In this document: one piece after another, positions 3,658-43,480 of the stretch
How the letters are laid out: every line of letters begins with the position of its first letter
Position numbering within the stretch: position 1 is the first letter of the stretch
NCBI GenBank assembly: GCA_032372955.1
Contig: GCA_032372955.1_4725.1
Origin: Escherichia coli
GTDB taxonomy: Bacteria; Pseudomonadota; Gammaproteobacteria; Enterobacterales; Enterobacteriaceae
Reading direction: 5' to 3' (one strand)
Length of the DNA: 64,000 nt
Notes under the pieces: generated by a model
The model's database searches: none
Seen by the model: the letters and a program-made list of their open reading frames with translations, nothing else
Told to the model about the DNA's origin: nothing
Translations under genes and position numbers: made by a program

Positions 3658-3698
3658 CCTCCTCCTGCCCATGTGGTGGGAGGAGGATGTTTATGCTG
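3658..3698 (+). terminator. stem-loop plus ATGTTTATGCTG (terminator or promoter punctuation)
   Basis: CCTCCTCC(3658-3665)/GGGAGGAGG(3678-3686). Confidence 0.5.
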
Positions 3699-4665: not shown

Positions 4666-5151
4666 ATGGAGATAGCACACGCCAACATATACGGCGATGG
4701 GTTAACGGTATATGAAGAAACATGGGCGAATGAACGAATTGTTTGGCTTAACGGATTCAATGTCAAAACGATCGAGGATCCTTCGTTAGGCGTCGCATAT
4801 ACGTATCCTGTCGATACCTTAGAACAGCTATTTCAGGATATTCGTAACGACCTCATTGAAGTGGAGGGTGTGGATGGAACGGTTTATGGCCGAGTCGATA
4901 AGTTCGGACGTGACCTTCGAGGCGATCATCCAAACATCATTTCTATTGGTGTTTATCCGTATTCGACATTCCCGTTTGTTGATGGCGTTTATGTTATCCG
5001 ACCAAAGTTGGTTGGTGAAGAAAACGTATACCGTAACGATAAAGGATTGCGTGTGACCGAAGTGAGACAGATAAAGGGCTTCATTCTCACGGTTGTTTCG
5101 GATATATCAGACGCTATGGATCCGTACGCTCTACGACAGAAAGCCGGGTAA
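4666..5151 (+). CDS. hypothetical protein
   Basis: 161 codons, AGAGGAAATGAG RBS. Confidence 0.55.
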   Translation: MEIAHANIYGDGLTVYEETWANERIVWLNGFNVKTIEDPSLGVAYTYPVDTLEQLFQDIRNDLIEVEGVDGTVYGRVDKFGRDLRGDHPNIISIGVYPYSTFPFVDGVYVIRPKLVGEENVYRNDKGLRVTEVRQIKGFILTVVSDISDAMDPYALRQKAG

Positions 5152-5296: not shown

Positions 5297-7303
5297 ATGA
5301 TTACAACACAGACAACCACCACGAAACGTCGTGTGAGGGCACGCGAGCTTATGCATTGGCCGGTTGATGAGGTGTTCGAATGGGCACAGCCTAATGACCG
5401 TGTGTATATCGAGATGGACGATGGCGTTCATGAATTGCGTGCACGACGCATTTTCTTTAGTTACATGCACTGGTCTGTGCATCGCATGTATCCTGAGACC
5501 CCACTAACAAAAGAGAACCTGGTTGATAAACGCAAGTTCACAGCGGGTTCATCGGTTGCGTTGCAAAGCGCAGCGTATCGTCAATGCATGTATGCTTATC
5601 CACAAGAGAATCGTGAGGTTCTCTGGAAAGCATTGTTCGATATGTTTAACAATGTGTATAACTTCTTTACGTATGCGTTGGAGGAATACGTAACAACGAT
5701 TTGCGCGGACGATTTTTATCAGATTACCGTACACCCCGAAGTTAAGAAAATCATCGCCGAAGCGGAACCCACCCGCGAAGGTATCGAAAGCGCATACAAG
5801 AAACTGACAAAGGTACTGAGCACCGATAAAACGTTACACGCAAACCCTATTGCACGTGCGGTAAGAACCGAACACGTTTCGATCGGACAGGTGCTGCAGT
5901 GTATTGGGATGCGTGGATTCTTGACTGATATTAACTCCGAGATATTCCGTGACCCAGTGATGCGGTCATACGCAGCTGGTTTGATCTCTCTTCCAGACAG
6001 CTTGAAAGAAAGTCGTTCTGCGGCAAAATCGTTGCTGTTCAACAAAGAGCAGATTAAAAAGTCTGAATATTTCGGTCGTGAACTTCAGATAGCGACAGCG
6101 GTTGTACAACGACTCCATCCTGGTGATTGTGGTAGTAAAGAGACCATCCCGATGCCAATCCGTGATGAGACCGACCTGCGTGGCTTCCACGGTCGATTCA
6201 TTATTCGTGACGACGGTTCGTTGGTAGCGATACAACCACACATGAAAGAATTGATCGGCACCACAGTGCGCATGCGCTCTGTTAACTATTGTCATCATCC
6301 CGATCCTGCTGGGGTATGTACGACGTGTTACGGTGAATTAAGTCATAACTTCGCATTGACTGATAATGTCGGCGACGGTGCAGCGCGTACCTGTTCGCAA
6401 CAGGTAACGCAGAACATTCTTTCTACCAAACACCACGATGGTTCGTCAACGGTATCCACAGCACCAATCCCACCGGAATATCAACATATCCTTCGCTACA
6501 GCCAGAACATGAACGACATCAAACTCGCACGTGAGCTGAAAGGTAAACACGTGTTGATTAAGATGAAGTTAGGTCTTGCGAACATGTTGTACGACGTAGC
6601 GGAAGCGGAAGAAATCAGTTCGCTGATACCGCAACGTCTGTTTAACATGACGCTTTGCGATATGGAGATTTACGACAGGAAAGATGAAAGCTATCGTAAG
6701 CTCAAAGTCAATTTCGATTTCTGTGGTCGTCCTGTTGTACCGAGTAAAGCGTTTATCCGGTATCTCAAACGCCATAGCTGGGAAGTGACGTCTGACGGGA
6801 TTGTGATTTTCGACTTGAAACATTGGGACAATTCACGTACGTTATTCCAGATGCCGTTAATCCACAAAAACATGATGGAATACGCAAAAGAAATCGAACG
6901 TGAATTCAAATTCGGGAAAGGTTCTTTCAGTGCCGGATTCCTCTCGGAAGACGAAGCAACACCGGAAGAAGTTGCAAACGTGCTGTACTATTGGCATCGC
7001 CTGTGTGCTCAGCGTCTGCGAATGAACCTTTCGCATCTCGACGTTATTCTCTACGCCAGCATGATTCGTTCACCGCACACGAAAGATTATCGCATGCCGA
7101 AACAGGGAACAACACGATACTTCAGTACCTTCAAGAAGAACATGAACATGCGCTCCTTGAGTATGAAGTTCGCTCACCAAGAGCAGCTGGATGCGTTCCA
7201 AAACCCGAACAGTTATATCCCAACCATGAAGCCGGATCATCCGATCGACTACATGCTGTTACCGCGTAAAGAACCTAAACCGGAGGATGTAATCACGTTA
7301 TGA
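5297..7303 (+). CDS. divergent multisubunit RNA polymerase beta-prime-like subunit (C-terminal module with bridge-helix and trigger-loop-like segments)
   Basis: 668 codons. SAAKSLLFNKEQIKKSEYFGRELQIATAVV resembles the RpoC bridge helix, RLHPGDCG the following DDCGT, VRMRSVNYCHHPDPAGVCTTCYGEL the C-terminal Cys cluster, and RTCSQQVTQNILSTKHHDGS the trigger loop GTQLTMRTFHIGG. Confidence 0.6.
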   Translation: MITTQTTTTKRRVRARELMHWPVDEVFEWAQPNDRVYIEMDDGVHELRARRIFFSYMHWSVHRMYPETPLTKENLVDKRKFTAGSSVALQSAAYRQCMYAYPQENREVLWKALFDMFNNVYNFFTYALEEYVTTICADDFYQITVHPEVKKIIAEAEPTREGIESAYKKLTKVLSTDKTLHANPIARAVRTEHVSIGQVLQCIGMRGFLTDINSEIFRDPVMRSYAAGLISLPDSLKESRSAAKSLLFNKEQIKKSEYFGRELQIATAVVQRLHPGDCGSKETIPMPIRDETDLRGFHGRFIIRDDGSLVAIQPHMKELIGTTVRMRSVNYCHHPDPAGVCTTCYGELSHNFALTDNVGDGAARTCSQQVTQNILSTKHHDGSSTVSTAPIPPEYQHILRYSQNMNDIKLARELKGKHVLIKMKLGLANMLYDVAEAEEISSLIPQRLFNMTLCDMEIYDRKDESYRKLKVNFDFCGRPVVPSKAFIRYLKRHSWEVTSDGIVIFDLKHWDNSRTLFQMPLIHKNMMEYAKEIEREFKFGKGSFSAGFLSEDEATPEEVANVLYYWHRLCAQRLRMNLSHLDVILYASMIRSPHTKDYRMPKQGTTRYFSTFKKNMNMRSLSMKFAHQEQLDAFQNPNSYIPTMKPDHPIDYMLLPRKEPKPEDVITL

Positions 7304-8874
7304 AGTTAGCTCGTATCGACGTCTTCTCGCATGGCATGAGGCTGAGCGGATACGGACTTCGATTTGCCCATCTTATCGGCCATTACCTTCGAGACCGTTG
7401 TTTGCATCTGAGGAAACGGCGTGACCCTCGTACACGGAGAATGGTTACCGATACCATAAACACGTATGCCGCGGCAAGAAGCGATTATAGCGAGGTATAC
7501 TTACTCCGCGAACAGTTGAAATCGTTTTTGGATTTTATCTTTTCCCGAGGGATACGAAAAGAGTGGTTGGAAATCGTCTATCACGATCCGGTACCAGGTA
7601 AGGAAGTGGAGTTCGTAAAGAAATGGAAGTTTCCATGGCGTGAAGATCAGCAAGAATGGTTGGAGTACATGGACGGGGGTAAGGATACCCCCTTCAGAAT
7701 GAGCCTAAACACCGCTCAAACGGGGTCGGGTAAAACAGCCATGTCTCAGGAGATTACCTTCCGACGCGGTGTACGGACGGGCATCATTCTGTCGCCGAGA
7801 TACATGCCAGGCTGGCGAAGCTCACTACTGAACTTCTTCGGAATGGAACCAGGGGACGTTATCGAGATACGCGGGAACGCTAAGGAGGATCCACCGCATC
7901 CCGACATTCCTCGTTACAGTATGTTGGAGTTTCAAACCTTGGTTGAACAAGGTGAACTCGACTTCAAAATCGCATTGTTCTCCTTGAACATGTTCCAACG
8001 TTATATTGCGGACTACGAGAAGAATAACTGCGTTGCGCCATATGCCTTTCATCCCGCTGAGTTTTGGGAAAAGACCGGCATAGGTTTGCTGATTCATGAC
8101 GAGTGTCACGAAGCATTGCATTTCTTGTTTAAGGTCAAGTGTTACGCCAATATTCCGGAAATCATTTATCTGTCGGCAACAGCGGTATCCGATGATCCGT
8201 TTATCGAACAGATGCTGTATTTGATGTATCCGAAAGAAGCCCGTTATGCGAAAGGCGAATACAAGAAATACATTGCGGTAAATGCGGTAACGTACCGACT
8301 ACGCAGTACAGATAAAGTCAGATACAAAGGGTTTGGTGGAGCTTATTCGCACACGATATTCGAACAGTCTATCATGAAGAACAAGCAACTCAAACTCGCG
8401 TATTTTAACTTCATCTATACCGTTATTATCAAGGGTTTCATGAACCAGTATCAGGAAGGTATGAAGATGCTGGTGTATTGTGCGACCGTTGATATGTGTA
8501 AGTCGTTGTCGCATTATCTCAGTGAACGTATTCCTGAGCTAGAGATCGGTCCTTATACTGCTGAAGAAGATTTCATGGTCTTGCTGGATAACGATATTAG
8601 CGTTACGACAGTGAAATCGGCAGGTACCGGTATCGACCTTCCTGACTTGGTGATGACGTTCATGACGTTAGCGATGGGGTCACGAACCGGCAACATTCAG
8701 GTGTTGGGACGACTGCGTCAGCTGAAAGGGAAGTTTGAAGGAATGACGCCAACGTTCTGGTATCTGGTATGTACTTCTATCGAAGCGCACCGTAAATACC
8801 ATCAGCGCAAGGTGGAGTTCTTCAGCGACAAAGTGCTTACCCAGCGTGTTATCGATGAAGATTTTGAATTGTAA
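7300..8874 (+). CDS. SF2 helicase (DExH-type)
   Basis: ATGA overlap with upstream stop; Walker A AQTGSGKT, motif II HDECHE, motif VI-like QVLGRLRQ. Confidence 0.6.
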   Translation: MKLARIDVFSHGMRLSGYGLRFAHLIGHYLRDRCLHLRKRRDPRTRRMVTDTINTYAAARSDYSEVYLLREQLKSFLDFIFSRGIRKEWLEIVYHDPVPGKEVEFVKKWKFPWREDQQEWLEYMDGGKDTPFRMSLNTAQTGSGKTAMSQEITFRRGVRTGIILSPRYMPGWRSSLLNFFGMEPGDVIEIRGNAKEDPPHPDIPRYSMLEFQTLVEQGELDFKIALFSLNMFQRYIADYEKNNCVAPYAFHPAEFWEKTGIGLLIHDECHEALHFLFKVKCYANIPEIIYLSATAVSDDPFIEQMLYLMYPKEARYAKGEYKKYIAVNAVTYRLRSTDKVRYKGFGGAYSHTIFEQSIMKNKQLKLAYFNFIYTVIIKGFMNQYQEGMKMLVYCATVDMCKSLSHYLSERIPELEIGPYTAEEDFMVLLDNDISVTTVKSAGTGIDLPDLVMTFMTLAMGSRTGNIQVLGRLRQLKGKFEGMTPTFWYLVCTSIEAHRKYHQRKVEFFSDKVLTQRVIDEDFEL

Positions 8875-14018: not shown

Positions 14019-14042
14019 TTTCACGGCTATATTACTTACGTG
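14019..14042 (+). promoter_or_regulatory. candidate phage promoter, TATATTAC-containing conserved motif (copy 1)
   Basis: TTTCACGGCTATATTACTTACGTG, 20/20 nt core identical to 43431..43450; about 45 nt upstream of ATG 14084. Confidence 0.45.
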
Positions 14043-20573: not shown

Positions 20574-21899
20574 ATGATGAGCAAACTACTGTTTGAAATT
20601 AACGGGAAAGAATATACACCGCCCCAGGCAGTTATCGGTGCGTTATTACGATACACTGCATACCGGCGTCAAGGATGGTTGTTTGATATTGATGGACCGG
20701 CGTTTATTACAGCGATACAGGATGCTATCGCCCCGAAGAAATTATGCGATAATTACAATACTGAACTGTCGTACAAATTATCGCCTATGGTTCCATATGC
20801 GTCCTATAAGGAACTTTTGACGGGTATATGTTCGTATGAACAAGGTGGGTCCACATCGTACACGCGTGCGCTGGAATTCGTAGAAGAAATAGTGCGTCGA
20901 TTGAAAGTTGATCCGTATAACACGCGTAAGGGAATAATACAACTAATGGTGTACGATTTCTCGGCTAGCCAAGAAATCATCGCGGAGTATAATCCTTACT
21001 TACTTATACGTGCTTTCTTCTGGATCGATGCAGCGCTAGATGATCGTTCCGGACCATGCCGTTTAGCGATTCATGCCGGTGAACGCCAGTTGAAGCAATG
21101 GTTGGAAGATTGCGATATCAATTTGCATGGCATGACGATACCCGATTTCTTCGAAGACTATTTTTCGTTATCGGGACTCGATGATGCTGTAGTAGAACTG
21201 AAACCTACGGATACCGATCCGGTTGTCGTCGAACTTAAAACCGAATCGGATACCAGCAACCATTCGTTCGAGCCGTTAGCGGTAGAGAAGCCTGCATTTT
21301 GTTTAGATGTTGAAAACCTTAGTTTGGAAAAGAATGGAGTATTGCTGGAAATCGGTATCGTGTTCTTCGATCTGGCTAATCCAGAATCCATTGTTAACGG
21401 TCCGCGTATAGATATCTTCCCTGACGTTCATGGTCAAATCGCTGACGGCGGTCGTATCAGTGAATCAACAGTAGAATGGTGGCAAACCAAAGCACCAAAG
21501 GAAGCGCGCGACTATTGTTTTCAACATTGTAAGGCAATGGGTTATAAAGAAGCCATCGCCGAAGTAAATGCGTTCGTCAACAGTATTCGTGACAGAATGA
21601 CTGAATACTACGGTAAAGATACCTTCTATTATCTTGCTCGTGGTGAAACAGATTGGCCTCAATTAGAGCATTGGTTCCGTAAAGCGGGCTTTAAGCCAGT
21701 TTGTCGTTATAACCAGGTTCAGGATATCCGTTCGATGATTGCTGCGTATCAAGACAAACCGGTATCCATCTTAGGCACCAAAGAGTATCCAGACATGGGT
21801 ATTCCGCTGATCCGTCATACCGCTATCGGTGACGCAATCATGGATGCGTACGACGTTGCGTTAGCGCGAAGCATGGCGACGTCTAAGCTACTGAAGTGA
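20574..21899 (+). CDS. protein with C-terminal DEDDh-type 3'-5' exonuclease-like domain
   Basis: FCLDVENLS (Exo I D-x-E-like) and HTAIGDAIMDAYD (Exo III H-x4-D-like) in the C-terminal half. Confidence 0.45.
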   Translation: MMSKLLFEINGKEYTPPQAVIGALLRYTAYRRQGWLFDIDGPAFITAIQDAIAPKKLCDNYNTELSYKLSPMVPYASYKELLTGICSYEQGGSTSYTRALEFVEEIVRRLKVDPYNTRKGIIQLMVYDFSASQEIIAEYNPYLLIRAFFWIDAALDDRSGPCRLAIHAGERQLKQWLEDCDINLHGMTIPDFFEDYFSLSGLDDAVVELKPTDTDPVVVELKTESDTSNHSFEPLAVEKPAFCLDVENLSLEKNGVLLEIGIVFFDLANPESIVNGPRIDIFPDVHGQIADGGRISESTVEWWQTKAPKEARDYCFQHCKAMGYKEAIAEVNAFVNSIRDRMTEYYGKDTFYYLARGETDWPQLEHWFRKAGFKPVCRYNQVQDIRSMIAAYQDKPVSILGTKEYPDMGIPLIRHTAIGDAIMDAYDVALARSMATSKLLK

Positions 21900-21950
21900 T
21901 AGCACCCTGCGCAATGAATATGACGATGATCGTTTAATAAAGGAAAGAAG

Positions 21951-22265
21951 ATGTCTGAAAAGCATATTGAAATTCTTGATGCCGCTATCGCTTCGAAAGA
22001 TAGCGGTACATTCATCAAAGCGGTATTTGCAGAACAGCGTAATAACCCAGCAACGCTGAATAAAGTTCGTGATGCAATTGCATTCCGTCTTACCAAGTCA
22101 GATATTTCTGATGTGGATAAAACAACGATGCGTAAATTACGCGACGATCTTAATGCATACATCGCTCGTGGTTGTACGGATAAAACCGTTCGTGAGGTTC
22201 TCGATTCTAACGTGAAATACGAATCAGACTTCAAGAAGAACGGTTCAACACCGAAAACAGAATAA
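21951..22265 (+). CDS. hypothetical protein
   Basis: 104 codons, AAGGAAAGAAG RBS. Confidence 0.5.
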   Translation: MSEKHIEILDAAIASKDSGTFIKAVFAEQRNNPATLNKVRDAIAFRLTKSDISDVDKTTMRKLRDDLNAYIARGCTDKTVREVLDSNVKYESDFKKNGSTPKTE

Positions 22266-22274
22266 CAGCATATT

Positions 22275-22315
22275 CCCTCCTCCTTCCCTGATGGGTTGGA
22301 GGAGGGTTATGTTCG
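22275..22315 (+). terminator. stem-loop plus TTATGTTCG
   Basis: CCCTCCTCC(22275-22283)/GGAGGAGGG(22298-22306) with inner CCC-TGAT-GGG. Confidence 0.5.
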
Positions 22316-22328
22316 TATTGAGGTTAAC

Positions 22329-22628
22329 ATGCTCGATCGTGAACGATTGAAGAAAACGACAAAGCTCCTCGATGAGTTCAGAACCGCGGGTCAATTCGAG
22401 AGCTTCACTAAGAACCGAGCTATTGTTCGATTCCTTCTTTATTTGTGTTGCGTTGATTCGTCAGAGCGGGTTAGCCATACGTGTCCTCTGCTCAACGAAA
22501 ATCGTATTCCGTTATACAAAGCCGAAGAGTTATGTGAGTTCTTGATGAAATTCGGCGTTTTCTGTAACAGATATCGTGGCGATAGATCCGATGGGTATCT
22601 TGTCGAATTTAATGTCTTATTTCATTAA
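22329..22628 (+). CDS. hypothetical protein
   Basis: Track TTG start 22296 lies in the stem-loop; ATG 22329 has GAGG RBS. Confidence 0.4.
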   Translation: MLDRERLKKTTKLLDEFRTAGQFESFTKNRAIVRFLLYLCCVDSSERVSHTCPLLNENRIPLYKAEELCEFLMKFGVFCNRYRGDRSDGYLVEFNVLFH

Positions 22629-22675
22629 AACATTACTGAAATAGGATATCTAATGAGGTGAAATTCCTCGCTACT

Positions 22676-22700
22676 ACTTACTTACTATAATTACTTATTT
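22676..22700 (+). promoter_or_regulatory. possible variant of the TATATTAC motif upstream of paralog family A
   Basis: ACTTACTATAATTACTTATTTAC about 15 nt upstream of ATG 22714; one extra A relative to CTATATTACTTA. Confidence 0.25.
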
Positions 22701-22713
22701 ACCGAGGTATCAA

Positions 22714-23316
22714 ATGACTGTTTATTTGAAAATGATTAACGGGCATTCCAATGAAATTGCCGACGCTAATCGTCCTTTCAATTTATATCCCGTTCCTGAC
22801 GGAGCTTGTATTGAATTCAATCGTGATCCTACAGGGAATCCGTTCATTAATGTCGTCATGAGCGATAAAACAAAAAGATCGTTTTATCCGACAGGTAATA
22901 CCTATGTCGTTGAGGATAAAACGACGGTATCCAAGTTTGAGTTCGAAGAAAAATTTAGCGCTGAAGATCGTAAAGAGACGTTAGATTTTCTTCAGAGTTT
23001 GGATTCATATCAGAATTTACCGGCGGATATTAAATGCTTAAAAATCGAAGATATGCTGTTAGCATTAAAACATACACCTCTTAAATGTTCAGAGAAAACG
23101 CCACGCGTGTTTAATATCCGTCTATTGAAATACTGTACACAACCGGTTAGAGTGAAAGAGAGTCAAACTCCATTGCTGGAAAAGTTATTCAGCGATTGTG
23201 GTTATCCCCACGTTGGATTTATTTACCCGGAACCAGAAAAATCATCAACCGAAAGAACGGTAATGCACATTGTTGTTAAATTACCTTCGGCGGAGAATAT
23301 CCTGTCGGGTTGGTGA
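22714..23316 (+). CDS. hypothetical protein, paralog family A (member 1)
   Basis: N-terminus MxVxLKMxxG..NAxPFxLxxVPD..IEFNRD..G shared with the next two genes. Confidence 0.55.
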   Translation: MTVYLKMINGHSNEIADANRPFNLYPVPDGACIEFNRDPTGNPFINVVMSDKTKRSFYPTGNTYVVEDKTTVSKFEFEEKFSAEDRKETLDFLQSLDSYQNLPADIKCLKIEDMLLALKHTPLKCSEKTPRVFNIRLLKYCTQPVRVKESQTPLLEKLFSDCGYPHVGFIYPEPEKSSTERTVMHIVVKLPSAENILSGW

Positions 23317-23330
23317 TATACCTCAACCCT

Positions 23331-23356
23331 TGAAGGGGAGGGTTAAATCCCCTTCA
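23331..23356 (+). terminator. GC-rich stem-loop (G-arm first)
   Basis: TGAAGGGGA(23331-23339)/TCCCCTTCA(23348-23356). Confidence 0.45.
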
Positions 23357-23388
23357 TTACTACTACTAGGACTACTAAGGAATAAAAC

Positions 23389-23922
23389 ATGAGCGTTATT
23401 GTAAAAGTAATGGGCAACTGCGATACTAGCGATCGTAACAACGCAAAACCGTTTACATTGCATGTGGTACCAGATCGCTTGACCACAATTGAATTCAACC
23501 GCGATTCGATGGGTAGACCGACACTGGAATTCGTCGCCCATGGTGATAAGGATCAACGATTTATCGATTACCCAGGTGGTAACGTTTATGTGATGGACAA
23601 TGGTAACACCATCGCAACGTATGCCTATTCCTGTGGTTTTGGGAAGGATGATGTTGACCGTATGTACGCGTACGTCCGTGCTACGAAGTATGGGGAAGTG
23701 CTGGATGCGAGTGGTAAACTTGACGATCGCCTTATTTGTGCGTTGTTGGAAATCCGTTTAATCGATCGTGATATAAAACAAACGCGCAATATCGAGTTTG
23801 TAAAATCAGACAATCCTAACTTTGTTAGTCACGTAAATCGTCTTTTACAAGAGTTGTTTACTGGTGAATTAACGGCATATTACGCCGGTGCGAACGGCAA
23901 AATCATCGCGATCGTTAAGTAG
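23389..23922 (+). CDS. hypothetical protein, paralog family A (member 2)
   Basis: Paralogous to 22714..23316 and 24009..24557. Confidence 0.55.
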   Translation: MSVIVKVMGNCDTSDRNNAKPFTLHVVPDRLTTIEFNRDSMGRPTLEFVAHGDKDQRFIDYPGGNVYVMDNGNTIATYAYSCGFGKDDVDRMYAYVRATKYGEVLDASGKLDDRLICALLEIRLIDRDIKQTRNIEFVKSDNPNFVSHVNRLLQELFTGELTAYYAGANGKIIAIVK

Positions 23923-23931
23923 TAATCCCTA

Positions 23932-23955
23932 CGAGGGGGTGGGATAATACCCCCT
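23932..23955 (+). terminator. GC-rich stem-loop (G-arm first)
   Basis: GAGGGGGT(23932-23939)/ACCCCCTC(23948-23955). Confidence 0.45.
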
Positions 23956-24008
23956 CAATTTGTTGTACTATCTATCATTTCTATTATCTATTATCATGAG
24001 GTTCTATT

Positions 24009-24557
24009 ATGTCTATGTTTTTGAAAATGATGAGCGGTTACAATCTCCCCGATGAGAACAATGCGAAGCCTTGTACGGTTCTACCGCTTTCGGATAAATG
24101 TAAGATCGAATTCGGTCGCGACGAGTACGGCGCACCTGTTGTAACCGTCGCCTATGAAGACGGAACAATCGAGAGCTATCATCCTGATGGGAATACTTAC
24201 CTCACCGAAGATCGTCGTACGATCGCAGCGTATGCGTACTCTGAATACGTAGCGCCAGGTCGTCGTATGGCTGTCGAGGTCACGATGAAAGACCTTAAGC
24301 GCTACGACGATTATGCACAGTTCGCAACCAATAACCAGATTGCGCATTTCCTAACTGTGTTATCTTGCGTTCCTCGCGGATGCGGCATAACCCGTAAATG
24401 TCGTCTGTCTGTTGACGATCGTATCAATGTAGGCGATATTGATAAACTTAGCGATTTTATCGCGGATATGGGTTATCAATTTGCTGGCTATACCACAACA
24501 AATCCGATGGATGACGAAATTATTTACGTTCTCGAATTCGCTGTTCTCGTGAAATAA
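24009..24557 (+). CDS. hypothetical protein, paralog family A (member 3)
   Basis: Paralogous to the two preceding genes. Confidence 0.55.
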   Translation: MSMFLKMMSGYNLPDENNAKPCTVLPLSDKCKIEFGRDEYGAPVVTVAYEDGTIESYHPDGNTYLTEDRRTIAAYAYSEYVAPGRRMAVEVTMKDLKRYDDYAQFATNNQIAHFLTVLSCVPRGCGITRKCRLSVDDRINVGDIDKLSDFIADMGYQFAGYTTTNPMDDEIIYVLEFAVLVK

Positions 24558-24570
24558 GTTGATTGATGGA

Positions 24571-24599
24571 GCCTCCCGTAATGGGAGGCTTTTATGCTG
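24571..24599 (+). terminator. stem-loop plus TTTTATGCTG
   Basis: GCCTCCC(24571-24577) GTAAT GGGAGGC(24583-24589). Confidence 0.55.
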
Positions 24600-24721
24600 C
24601 CATATCCCGTCCATCAAAACTAACGGATTTTAAGAATTCTCTGAAGCCAGGAGAACCGACGTTGTAAGTAATTAGGGCGTCTCGACAAAACTCTATTTAC
24701 TTTTACGACGAGGTGAAAACG

Positions 24722-24925
24722 ATGTTAACGAAGGAATCCAAGAAGAACATTGAAGCATGGATTTTTGATAATGCGCCGTTGAATCTATCATTGGATCCGA
24801 AGGTTCGTGGTTTACAAGCTGATTTTGCGTATAACGTGTTACATGGTTGCTGTTACACGTTAAGCAATCCTAAATATCGTTATAAATTTCAGGAACTACT
24901 CGAAACACTTAGAGGATTAAAATGA
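24722..24925 (+). CDS. hypothetical small protein
   Basis: ATG after GAGGTG RBS; ATGA-coupled to thyA. Confidence 0.4.
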
Positions 24926-25941
24926 AACAGTATTTGGACCTTTTGCAAGACATCATGGATAACGGTCGCGATAAAGCCGATCGCACAGGTACCGGAACCC
25001 GTTCCGTATTCGGGCGTCAAATGCGTTTTGACTTGAAGAAAGGATTCCCGCTGGTAACCACCAAGAAGATTCACCTTAAGAGCGTTATCCACGAACTGCT
25101 CTGGTTTCTTAACGGTGATACGAACGTTGCTTATCTTCAAGATAACGGTGTTCGTATCTGGAATGAATGGGCTGACGAAGAAGGGAATCTAGGACCGATT
25201 TACGGCAAACAATGGCGGGAATGGATCGACTATAAAGTGGTTGTTCCGCACGATACAGAACGTACTCGTGAGTTGATGCAACGCGGCTATGAGTATTGCG
25301 GCATCCTTGACGCCGGTATGCTAAAACACCTCGTGTATGTTAAACCTCACGATCAGATTGCAAACGTAATGCGTCAGCTTAAAGAAGATCCTGATTCTCG
25401 ACGGATCATCGTTAGCGCGTGGAACGTAGGCGATTTAGACGATATGCATCTCGCTCCGTGCCATTCATTTTATCAGTTCTATACCCACGAGCTCACGATC
25501 GATGAACGCGTTGATTATGTTCAACGCAATGACGTATTAAGAACCCAATGGGTTACGGATGACGTACGGCATAGTGAAACGGAACTTTGGTTGAACGCGC
25601 ATAACGTACCAACACGTGCTTTATCCTGTCAGCTTTATCAGCGATCGTGCGACGCAGTGCTTGGGAAACCGTTCAACATCGCATCGTATTCGTTGTTAAC
25701 GCATATGCTTGCCCAACAGCTGAATATGGACGTTGGTGAGTTCGTGTGGACGGGTGGAGATTGCCACATCTATCACAACCACTTCGAACAGGTTAAAGAG
25801 CAGCTCAGTCGTGAGCCGTACCCATTACCGAAGCTAACAATCGTACGTAAACCGGAAAGTATTACGGATTACCGTTACGAAGACTTTGTGTTTGTTGGAT
25901 ATCAATCACATCCGGCTATCAAGGCTAAGGTGGCGGTGTAA
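24922..25941 (+). CDS. thyA: thymidylate synthase (ThyA) with two internal insertions
   Basis: [63 protein letters not shown] closely match E. coli ThyA; 339 aa versus about 264 aa. Confidence 0.9.
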
Positions 25942-43430: not shown

Positions 43431-43480
43431 TTTTCACGGCTATATTACTTAGGTGAAGCAATGCAGTAATCAGCTTCACC
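43431..43480 (+). promoter_or_regulatory. candidate phage promoter, TATATTAC motif (copy 2), followed by a 5' hairpin
   Basis: TTTTCACGGCTATATTACTTAGGTG then GGTGAAGC(43452-43459)/GCTTCACC(43473-43480). Confidence 0.45.

Follow-up and report, generated by a model that had tools for sequence, protein, structure and literature searches.

The four adjacent genes described here form an accessory-gene array, which occupies a variable hotspot in the genome of a nucleus-forming jumbo phage related to Goslar. The window (the whole stretch of DNA analyzed, 64,000 nucleotides) derives from a Goslar-like chimallivirus with ~92% nucleotide identity to Goslar, and the hotspot lies between the capsid-latch gene and thyA. 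Within it, four self-contained cassettes sit between two elements of a "hairpin + TTATG" class that is typical of this genome, with other copies at positions 3659, 15839, 24570 (the right bracket), 39889, 46747, 59225, and 63664. The cassettes follow a common plan, in which a hairpin lies 3' of each N-domain gene and a G-poor ACU/UAC-repeat leader lies directly 5' of the SD sequence (Table 1).

Table 1 Features of the four-gene block and its borders, in window positions.
Feature	Position	Strand	Remarks
Strong CCTCC/GGAGG hairpin, then GGTTATG	22277..22304	+	-26.6 kcal/mol; left bracket of the four-gene block
Solo C-domain ORF, 99 aa, fourth member	22329..22628	+	No N-domain; no TAC-repeat leader
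Weak 4-bp hairpin GAGGtgaaattCCTC (GAGG/CCTC)	22655..22669	+	-0.9 kcal/mol; kept in relatives; left joint of the p1 cassette
p1 leader: G-poor TACT/TTAC repeat tract, then SD GAGG (22704-22707)	22670..22713	+	
p1, 200 aa: N-domain + p3-type C-domain	22714..23316	+	
p1/p2 hairpin, 9-bp stem, no U-tract	23331..23356	+	-15.8 kcal/mol
p2 leader: ACTACTACT (23359-23367), then AGGACTACTAAGGA, SD at 23377-23381	23357..23388	+	Family-linked leader motif
p2, 177 aa: N-domain + different C-half	23389..23922	+	Goslar gp144 ortholog
p2/p3 hairpin, 9-bp stem, T-rich tail	23933..23956	+	-18.0 kcal/mol; putative terminator in the Goslar annotation
p3 leader: TACTATC/TATTATC repeats, then SD GAGG	23957..24008	+	Nearly invariant among relatives
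p3, 182 aa: N-domain + C-domain	24009..24557	+	Goslar gp143 ortholog
Terminator-type hairpin (24570-24590), then TTTATGCTG	24570..24599	+	-17.2 kcal/mol, z = -3.85; right bracket; Goslar-annotated terminator

Three of these genes (p1, p2, and p3) had been singled out as tandem paralogs in a preliminary description of the sequence, which gave their coordinates exactly. Their paralogy is borne out by BLASTP similarity lying outside low-complexity sequence, with pairwise E values of 9e-14 (p1/p2), 1e-20 (p1/p3), and 6e-14 (p2/p3) at 26-37% identity; they are ancient paralogs, not recent duplicates. The motifs quoted for them correspond to invariant alignment columns (M1, K6, P21, D29, I33, E34, F35, R37, D38, G41, P43, P59, G61, N62, Y64, and T71). 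We showed that the products are two-domain proteins, the N-domain being the family core and the C-half being exchangeable. The N-domain is a conserved, all-beta, acidic unit of 77 aa (AF2 model pLDDT of 94.6; median pI 4.85 and net charge -4 across the family, with a pI below 6 in 86%). Divergence at the C-terminus, as originally proposed, applies to the C-half of p2, for which a relation to the p1/p3-type C-domain was not detectable (HMM E = 0.12), but not to p1 and p3, whose alignment covers ~175 aa and includes a C-domain common to both. The fourth gene is related to this same C-domain, according to an HMM built without p2-type rows (E = 3e-8) and to comparison with p3 by BLASTP (E = 6e-7) and hhalign (E = 4.9e-5), and a profile search recovered its ortholog, P0196. 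When the N- and C-domain HMMs were run against all six-frame ORFs of the window, no family members were found outside the cluster.

The N-domain was identified in 129 representative clusters (50% identity), at the extreme N-terminus in all of them. Proteins bearing it are mostly 75-115 aa long and most members in other phages consist of the N-domain alone; the longest reaches 481 aa, and the long members carry unrelated tails. The named hosts of phages encoding the family are Escherichia, Erwinia, Pseudomonas, Proteus, Vibrio, Acinetobacter, and Burkholderia. The earlier designation as a gene family of unknown function still stands: Pfam, NCBIfam, PADLOC, and Rfam gave only sub-threshold chance matches and none above the family threshold, and no structural neighbour was found. 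In PHROGs, p2 hits phrog_10337 (3e-7) as well as the 81 N-terminal positions of phrog_10807 (7e-6), two families that carry no functional annotation; the phrog_10807 profile has 379 positions, the length of RAY gp198. Neither family was matched by p1, and p3 gave a marginal match only. What emerges from this locus is a domain family that is widespread and structurally confident and that has no entry in Pfam, NCBIfam, or PADLOC.

The family had also been called diversifying, a term that is apt for its turnover, given that copy number and allele content vary, but misleading for its selection. Close relatives contain 1 to 3 full-length members in several latch-thyA architectures, and ortholog identity spans 65-100% where the flanking genes show 92-99%. 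IMG/VR contained only Goslar and one relative. Selection is purifying, with whole-gene NG86 dN/dS values of 0.16 (p1), 0.18 (p2), and 0.16 (p3); the N-domains gave 0.06-0.11, the C-halves 0.14-0.33, and the solo C-domain gene 0.13. The intergenic hairpin/leader units are better preserved than the genes around them: identity reaches 96.5% between p2 and p3, versus 82.3% and 89.2% for the genes, and 96.8% in the p3-g67 intergenic region. The p1 cassette (about 22696-23357) is wholly missing from Goslar, and the joints of this indel are made of the hairpin and a shared TACTACT. The comparisons showed that cassettes are gained, lost, or replaced whole, whereas the hairpin/leader joints are conserved.

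This arrangement recalls the PeSL (promoter-early stem-loop) cassettes known from T4-type phages, where they occupy hyperplastic regions (Arbiol et al. 2010, PMC2839356; Comeau et al. 2014, PMC4122927). In both systems, small non-essential ORFs of variable regions are delimited by short conserved intergenic units that contain a stem-loop, whole ORFs are inserted, deleted, or replaced at these units between close relatives, and conservation is higher in the units than in the ORFs; indels bounded by cassettes in a hyperplastic region, which characterize PeSL, are represented here by the p1 cassette relative to Goslar. In contrast to PeSL cassettes, the units of the window are not near-identical copies: the three hairpin/leader units have no more than short TACT-type repeats in common (mean column identity of 47%) and are too dissimilar for homologous recombination within the genome, and the microhomology at the p1 indel amounts to only ~7-9 nt, far shorter than in PeSL-type recombination. 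They also lack a strong sigma-70-like early promoter, and their leader is tied to one protein family and kept across genera, a feature foreign to PeSL.

The AT-rich leaders with TAC or TAT repeats, noted before each paralog from the outset, are clearly non-random. Ranked by TAC/TAT/CTA content, the p1-p3 leaders occupy positions 1-3 among the 53 of the window (11, 11, and 9; median 2, next best 5), their tracts are the sole three of this kind when both strands are checked, and the leaders of the two Goslar orthologs are the top two tracts of the whole 237-kb Goslar genome. We showed in this way that TAC/ACT-repeat leaders are specific to the family within the genome. Each paralog has its own repeat variant, and ACTACTACT occurs once in the window and is unique in the Goslar genome. 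A P0123-type gene in slot 1 carries the N-domain with a leader poor in repeats.

The association extends to other phages. Homologs in four further lineages, one of them a metagenomic contig (RAY gp198, Phabio 456, Viktualia, and L009), carry the motif ACTACTACT 15-23 nt ahead of their ATG, and a shorter form, ACTACTAG, precedes 201phi2-1 gp34; the proteins sharing the motif are only ~30% identical. In small phages, ACTA[CG] occurs at -30 to -5 of 6/7 solo N-domain genes versus 5/129 other genes (p = 4e-7). In L024, L029, and L031, GGCAGAGATGCC is perfectly conserved upstream of the gene despite only 42-45% protein identity, and some members additionally carry a GGCAGAGAUGCC GNRA mini-hairpin. 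These comparisons showed that the leader is conserved across genera and specific to one gene family, its conservation reaching far beyond that of its coding sequence. A literature search for ACUACUACU retrieved only unrelated siRNA and primer sequences. As to a resemblance to Hfq- or CsrA-type sites, (ARN)n is incompatible with ACU, and an overlap with GGA motifs would be expected of every strong SD sequence. Available ChmC eCLIP data were obtained with PhiPA3, not Goslar, and do not apply to these leaders. An enhancer acting through lack of structure was not supported, the leaders not being consistently less structured than others (ranks 33, 3, and 9 of 53).

The preliminary description held the genes to be independently transcribed, with a GC stem-loop before each. 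Strong hairpins do lie upstream of p2 and p3, but the claim fails for p1 because its upstream hairpin is the weak 4-bp one of Table 1. Independent transcription is unproven, since the leaders lack the Goslar strong early-promoter consensus. This consensus, TTTCACGGCTATATTACTTAgGTGA, has no copy in the cluster, even at 3 mismatches; it is present at window positions 14025 (the nearest upstream of the cluster) and 43438, and at ~8 Goslar sites including one upstream of chmA. We therefore rejected the leaders as strong early promoters, the extended early consensus being missing. A sigma-70-like consensus scan of positions 21500-25500 found no plus-strand site in any leader and 3 sites overall versus 9.2 expected; chimalliviruses are not known to depend on the host RNA polymerase. 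The leaders could contain weak or middle-class phage promoters.

Among phiKZ-type signals, an AT-rich early promoter of the virion RNA polymerase centred near -10 and a TATG late promoter have been described (PMC7598289). The top intergenic motif of Goslar, (C)TATATTAC(T), belongs with the AT-rich early promoters, TTATG follows many hairpins of the window, including both brackets of the block, and the Goslar orthologs are early-class. The family leaders differ in being devoid of the extended early consensus and placed against the SD sequence, and TATG-type elements are confined to the two outer ends of the block.

It is conceivable, but unlikely, that the cassettes are autonomous transcription units in which the TAC/TAT-rich leader would serve as a phage RNA polymerase promoter right after the terminator of the previous gene. 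The hairpins following p1, p2, and p3, two of which were called terminators by the Goslar annotators, are consistent with this organization, as are the high conservation of the leaders, the similarity of their TTACTTA-like core to part of the Goslar early-promoter core TATATTACTTA, and a read density of gp144 and gp143 ~1.5-fold above that of their neighbours. However, a U-tract is present at the hairpin following p3 alone, and in the Goslar RNA-seq data the read counts of gp144 and gp143 are nearly identical on both sides of the p2/p3 hairpin, with no drop. Together with an early-class coverage that is fairly uniform over ~50 genes, these counts suggest read-through from upstream. Furthermore, just 1-4 nt separate the end of the repeat from the SD sequence in Phabio, Viktualia, and 201phi2-1, too little to accommodate both a transcription start and a ribosome-binding site. 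Because the repeat tracts abut the SD sequence, a 5'-UTR or translational element fits better than a promoter.

Such an element might be of several kinds. The ACU-repeat/ACUAG motif at the SD sequence could function as a portable and dedicated cis-regulatory operator that co-migrates with the domain among Chimalliviridae and unrelated small phages, a proposal to which we attach a low probability. If it were correct, the leader would be read by a trans-acting factor, possibly a complex containing the N-domain protein itself, in an undescribed gene-specific post-transcriptional circuit, and the tandem array would represent co-diversified operator/protein pairs. A specific translational operator would also offer a new regulatory handle in phages that separate transcription from translation, as well as a portable expression signal. 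Alternatively, the N-domain protein may bind its own leader beside the SD sequence and repress its own translation, which would explain why leader and domain travel together. Their co-occurrence across genera and hosts argues for such autoregulation, as do the lack of such a leader in the solo C-domain gene and in every other gene of the genome, the distinct repeat variant of each paralog, and the invariance of GGCAGAGATGCC among divergent members. The acidic nature of the N-domains is nevertheless unfavourable for RNA binding, and we regard autoregulation as rather improbable.

With regard to expression, Goslar gp143 and gp144 show a log2FC of ~+0.1 under ChmA knock-down, as opposed to -4 to -7 for late/structural genes (bioRxiv 10.1101/2023.09.20.558163, Sup. 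Table 2). Both are early-class genes whose transcription is independent of nucleus formation, an assignment established for the Goslar orthologs and not for the window phage. Their peptides were also detected in Goslar virion preparations (bioRxiv 10.64898/2026.04.21.720040, Table S4), raising the question of whether the proteins are packaged or injected, with the N-domain as a head-targeting or docking module for a variable C-terminal cargo. The constant position of the N-domain ahead of variable tails and the location of the cluster two genes away from the capsid "latch" gene gp146 point in this direction, as does the fact that the solo N-domain gene adjoins terminase, portal, or Mu-F genes in 5/7 small-phage contexts. 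Yet the two proteins are present in trace amounts, with LFQ fractions of 0.0004 (gp143, 3 spectra) and 0.0001 (gp144), and contaminants with similar mRNA levels are higher, including ThyA (0.0012), an exoribonuclease (0.0035), a helicase (0.0006), ChmC (0.0047), chimallin, and PhuZ. Moreover, most members are domain-only and would have no cargo, and module boundaries are generic sites of accessory-gene insertion; one of the small-phage contexts is early-like, and another is ambiguous. Virion membership was rejected on the ground that gp143 and gp144 fall below non-structural proteins of the same preparation, and a role in the particle appears very doubtful.

Accessory genes of this kind are known from phage "morons" and accessory islands, and Mu-F polymorphic toxins combine an N-terminal anchor with variable C-terminal effectors. 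The family shares with these systems small self-contained genes, flanking signals of their own, insertion at module boundaries, and one N-module joined to many unrelated C-termini. In contrast to them, it occurs here in a lytic jumbo phage and not a prophage, its members mostly consist of the N-domain alone, and a search of ten long N-domain members turned up no Pfam domain, none of the C-termini showing a toxin domain or a known effector domain.

The reading we favour, which we hold to be plausible though somewhat short of probable, is a cassette array encoding early modulators, with a leader that would act at translation initiation and with exchange at the joints. The proteins may be made early and bind protein partners so as to modulate factors of the host or the phage, in the manner of host-takeover or counter-defence proteins, a description that we draw from context only (early class, accessory hotspot, and small acidic proteins). 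A shared activity would reside in the N-domain, with specificity contributed by the C-halves; the leader would act on the mRNA as an operator or enhancer, not as a promoter, and cassettes would be exchanged by breakage and rejoining at the hairpin/leader joints.

Nucleus-forming jumbo phages figure prominently as models and are candidates for use in phage therapy, yet the majority of their early accessory genes await study. The hotspot of cassette turnover is now documented for Goslar-like phages, which commonly turn up as contigs of ~240 kb in assemblies of Salmonella and E. coli. Finally, independent gene callers placed the solo C-domain gene on the plus strand, where the Goslar annotation has a minus-strand ORF; the annotation of this stretch is on the wrong strand, and the Goslar reference is hereby corrected at the equivalent position.

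The segment 22000-25000 is ~92% identical in nucleotide sequence to Escherichia phage vB_EcoM_Goslar, a nucleus-forming jumbo phage (Goslarvirus, Chimalliviridae) whose syntenic stretch reads exonuclease gene, gp146, gp145, gp144, gp143, gp142, and thyA. The three tandem genes p1, p2, and p3 (gp144 and gp143 are the Goslar orthologs of p2 and p3) belong to an accessory array of four genes, which are ancient paralogs. The array occupies a gain/loss hotspot, is expressed early, and evolves under purifying selection; its joints are conserved, and its leader is both family-specific and maintained across genera. p1 has a 100%-identical match in a Salmonella Newport assembly, a protein annotated on a 243.9-kb contig, and orthologs are present on many contigs of 235-250 kb, both from metagenomes and from assemblies of Salmonella, E. 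coli, and Shigella.

The reading frames have the boundaries given in the preliminary description, and the paralogy it proposed is genuine: pairwise BLASTP yields E values of 9e-14, 1e-20, and 6e-14 at 26-37% identity, and the motifs said to be shared are invariant columns of the p1/p2/p3 alignment. An exhaustive profile search also retrieved P0196, a 99-aa protein matching the C-half only, whose counterpart in the window, solo C, sits directly upstream of p1. Solo C is homologous to the p3 C-half (BLASTP 6e-7, hhalign 4.9e-5, HMM without p2-type rows 3e-8), is under purifying selection (dN/dS = 0.13), and is placed on the same strand by independent gene-calling pipelines. At this site, Goslar carries the annotation Goslar_00145, a 75-aa minus-strand ORF (MK327938 134413-134640) opposite the conserved 99-aa gene; given the dN/dS and C-domain homology of the latter, Goslar_00145 is likely a misannotation. 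Because solo C matches the p3 C-half, whereas the p2 C-half has no detectable relationship to the p1/p3 C-domain (HMM E = 0.12), the array is solo C, N+C (p1), N+C' (p2), and N+C (p3). Scanning all six frames of the window with HMMs detected no other family members.

Features of the array and its surroundings in the window
Feature	Position	Strand	Remark
Exonuclease gene	20574-21899		Rv2179c-like 3'-5'
Latch gene	21951-22265	+	gp146 ortholog
Solo C	22329-22628	+	C-domain only
p1	22714-23316
p2	23389-23922
p3	24009-24557
thyA	24922-25941		intact
p1 cassette	~22696-23357		indel relative to Goslar
Hairpin 5' of p1	22655-22669		4-bp stem, -0.9 kcal/mol
Hairpin p1/p2	23331-23356		-15.8 kcal/mol
Hairpin p2/p3	23933-23956		-18.0 kcal/mol
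Hairpin after p3	24570-24590		-17.2 kcal/mol
ACTACTACT	23359-23367		p2 leader
CCTCC/GGAGG hairpin + (T)TATG(C/T)	3659, 15839, 22277, 24570, 39889, 46747, 59225, 63664	+
GGCTATATTACTTA	14025-14038, 43438-43451	+	exact copies

The N-domain is carried by 129 clusters among 1.84 billion representatives, and in nearly all of them the match is confined to residues 1-80 and always starts at residue 1-4 (consensus M..vKmMSgEdlpDsd.sKgF.L...F.Rd..G.P...Y.p.GN.YVm.e.GKTIasF.). Most of these proteins are 73-115 aa long, the remainder reaching 481 aa with unrelated tails; no Pfam domains were found in 10 long members, and all entries retrieved by a second search were "hypothetical protein" records lacking Pfam matches. 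Annotated carriers are Erwinia RAY-group phages (gp198, 379 aa), Pseudomonas phages Phabio, Viktualia, and 201phi2-1 (gp34), Proteus phage 10, Salmonella phage SA002, a 139-kb Vibrio phage, and 45-kb Acinetobacter Obolenskvirus phages. AlphaFold2 models the N-domain confidently as an all-beta fold of seven strands (pLDDT 94.6); the model of full-length p3 contains an alpha/beta C-domain in addition (pLDDT 77). Seven unrelated small phages or prophages have a solo N-domain gene; in 5 of them it is 1-3 genes away from terminase, portal, or Mu-F genes and often opens that operon (L003 at 3501; L024, L025, L027, and L029 at 6001); in L025 and L029, what looks from the sequence like a tRNA-gene 3' end lies just upstream.

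The TAC/TAT-rich leaders are markedly atypical. With TAC/TAT/CTA trinucleotide counts of 11, 11, and 9 (median, 2), those of p1-p3 rank 1-3 among 53 window leaders, and neither strand of the window has another such tract; the gp144 and gp143 leaders are the two top-scoring tracts of the entire 237-kb Goslar genome. Solo C has no repeat leader. The 9-mer ACTACTACT occurs once in the window (both strands) and once in Goslar, in the gp144 leader. It recurs 15-23 nt 5' of the N-domain gene ATG in RAY gp198, Viktualia, Phabio 456, and a metagenomic locus (L009), and nowhere else in the loci retrieved from other lineages; ACTACTAGAAGG (201phi2-1 gp34) and ACTAGTAGAAGGA (Vibrio R16F) take the equivalent position. 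The proteins sharing this leader are only ~30% identical to p2/p3, and a 9-mer like this would fall within 40 nt of a given ATG by chance with a probability of ~2e-4. Among the small phages, 6/7 solo N-domain genes have ACTA[CG] between -30 and -5, versus 5/129 other genes (p = 4e-7). Moreover, GGCAGAGATGCC is perfectly conserved, once per locus, upstream of N-domain genes in a Burkholderia prophage contig (L024, 5970-5981), L029 (5937-5948), and L031 (5970-5981), whose proteins are only 42-45% and coding DNA 49-55% identical. It could fold as a GNRA-loop mini-hairpin, and a second copy in L029, GCCAGAGATGGC, ~10 nt downstream, is altered on both sides of the stem with pairing kept. Among close relatives, the p2 leader has 3 or 4 ACT repeats (window 23359-23367; Goslar, locus L001, 4675-4686; L018 4644-4655), consistent with slippage.

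Could the leaders be phage promoters? De novo k-mer analysis of 146 Goslar upstream regions gave (C)TATATTAC(T) as the top motif (32-64-fold enriched), with sites, including one upstream of chmA, that extend to TTTCACGGCTATATTACTTAgGTGA. Both copies of GGCTATATTACTTA lie inside TTTCACGGCTATATTACTTA(c/g)GTG. This extended motif is found ~8 times in Goslar, the chmA upstream region included, and so probably represents the vRNAP early promoter in Goslar-like phages. No family leader matches the top Goslar motif. The leader motif abuts the Shine-Dalgarno sequence (gap of 1-4 nt in Phabio, Viktualia, and 201phi2-1), which points to an mRNA-level element more than to a promoter, a role that we consider unlikely.

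A GC stem-loop had been described upstream of each gene; it is strong between p1/p2 and p2/p3, but weak upstream of p1. Between genes, this genome typically has a CCTCC/GGAGG hairpin with TTATG(C/T) directly after it (at least 8 in the window). The element may combine a terminator with a TATG-type (phiKZ late-like) start signal; Goslar upstream regions are 9.8-fold enriched in TTTATGC. Two such elements, at 22277 and 24570, bracket the array, and the two internal hairpins followed by a TAC-rich leader are unique to it. The p2-p3 hairpin-plus-leader unit is 96.5% identical versus 82.3% and 89.2% for p2 and p3, and the unit between p3 and the next gene (g67) 96.8% versus 89.2% and 86.4% for the adjoining genes. 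Intergenic units are likewise better conserved than genes in the PeSL cassettes of T4-type phages (PMC2839356); unlike these, the array joints lack the PeSL-defining sigma-70 promoter and high similarity between copies.

In Goslar RNA-seq, ChmA knock-down lowers the transcripts of structural genes (log2FC -4 to -7) but leaves gp143 and gp144, like all of gp106-gp159, unchanged (~+0.1; bioRxiv 10.1101/2023.09.20.558163, Sup. Table 2); gp143 and gp144 are thus of the early, nucleus-independent class. Computed from read counts and gene lengths, read density at 30 mpi is 1.74 (gp144) and 1.67 (gp143) reads/nt, against 1.13 for gp146, 1.10 for gp142, and 0.6-1.4 for the neighborhood, a step of only ~1.5-fold with no fall across the p2/p3 hairpin. 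The latch mRNA (gp146, recently assigned as capsid "latch" protein, 55 copies) also behaves as early class despite its capsid role. Packaging of gp143 and gp144 in the virion might be suspected from their detection by virion LC-MS/MS, but their LFQ fractions of 0.0004 and 0.0001 (bioRxiv 10.64898/2026.04.21.720040, Table S4) are below those that this preparation gave for ThyA, the exoribonuclease, a helicase, ChmC, chimallin, and PhuZ; we therefore take the peptides as proof of translation and not of virion membership, and consider packaging very unlikely.

We tentatively propose that the leader would act at translation initiation and that the proteins, which are small and acidic, would modulate factors of the host or the phage by binding to proteins. 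An autoregulatory circuit, with the proteins binding RNA, is weakened by the acidic N-domain (median pI 4.85; below 6 in 86%) and seems very unlikely.

The variable segment lies between the conserved latch gene and thyA, and comparison of relatives bears out copy-number variation there. Solo C, p1, p2, and p3 occur together in the window, L012, and L014-L018; Goslar and L004 have solo C, p2, and p3, and L013, grouped with Goslar by its Goslar-type p2 leader, starts at p2. L006 and L007 carry diverged p1 (74%) and p2 (70%), p3, and a DUF7448 gene, without solo C; L010 and L011 carry solo C, the p2-like P0123 (39%) in slot 1, p2 (65%), and p3, followed in L010 by a DUF7448 gene (L011 ends right behind p3); L008 has one distant member, P0121 (37% to p3), and a DUF7448 gene. 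Alignment breakpoints of the p1 indel overlap by 19 nt, and TACTACT beside the hairpins is the part common to both window joints.

Identity to the window is 92-99% for flanking genes, 74-100% for p1, 65-97% for p2, and 76-85% for p3. The family had been called diversifying; dN/dS is 0.16-0.18 for p1-p3 (N-domains 0.06-0.11, C-halves 0.14-0.33), with 0.12 for the latch gene and 0.09 for thyA. Because p1-p3 dS exceeds that of the adjacent latch and solo C genes (thyA is intermediate), exchange of old alleles rather than positive selection is suggested.

Several minor observations concern the same region. The DUF7448 gene (287-294 aa), with small ORFs, lies downstream of p3 (L006 5956-6819, L008 5664-6527, L010 2325-3209) and is in neither the window nor Goslar, forming another variable cassette of this hotspot. 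In L014 and L017 (~4673-4694), p2 starts with ATA, not ATG; an ORF of 170 aa then opens 7 codons further on and lacks the first beta-strand, which may reflect decay of p2 or a non-canonical start. The exonuclease gene is mosaic among otherwise ~95%-identical phages (53% versus 77-100% aa identity; window, L001, L008, L012, L015, L017, and L018); in L015 and L018 it is either truncated or split. L012 has a 600-aa ORF at the thyA position, and in L016, L017, and L018 (~6207-8333) thyA is split by a GIY-YIG/NUMOD3 homing-endonuclease gene, in what looks like an intron-type insertion.
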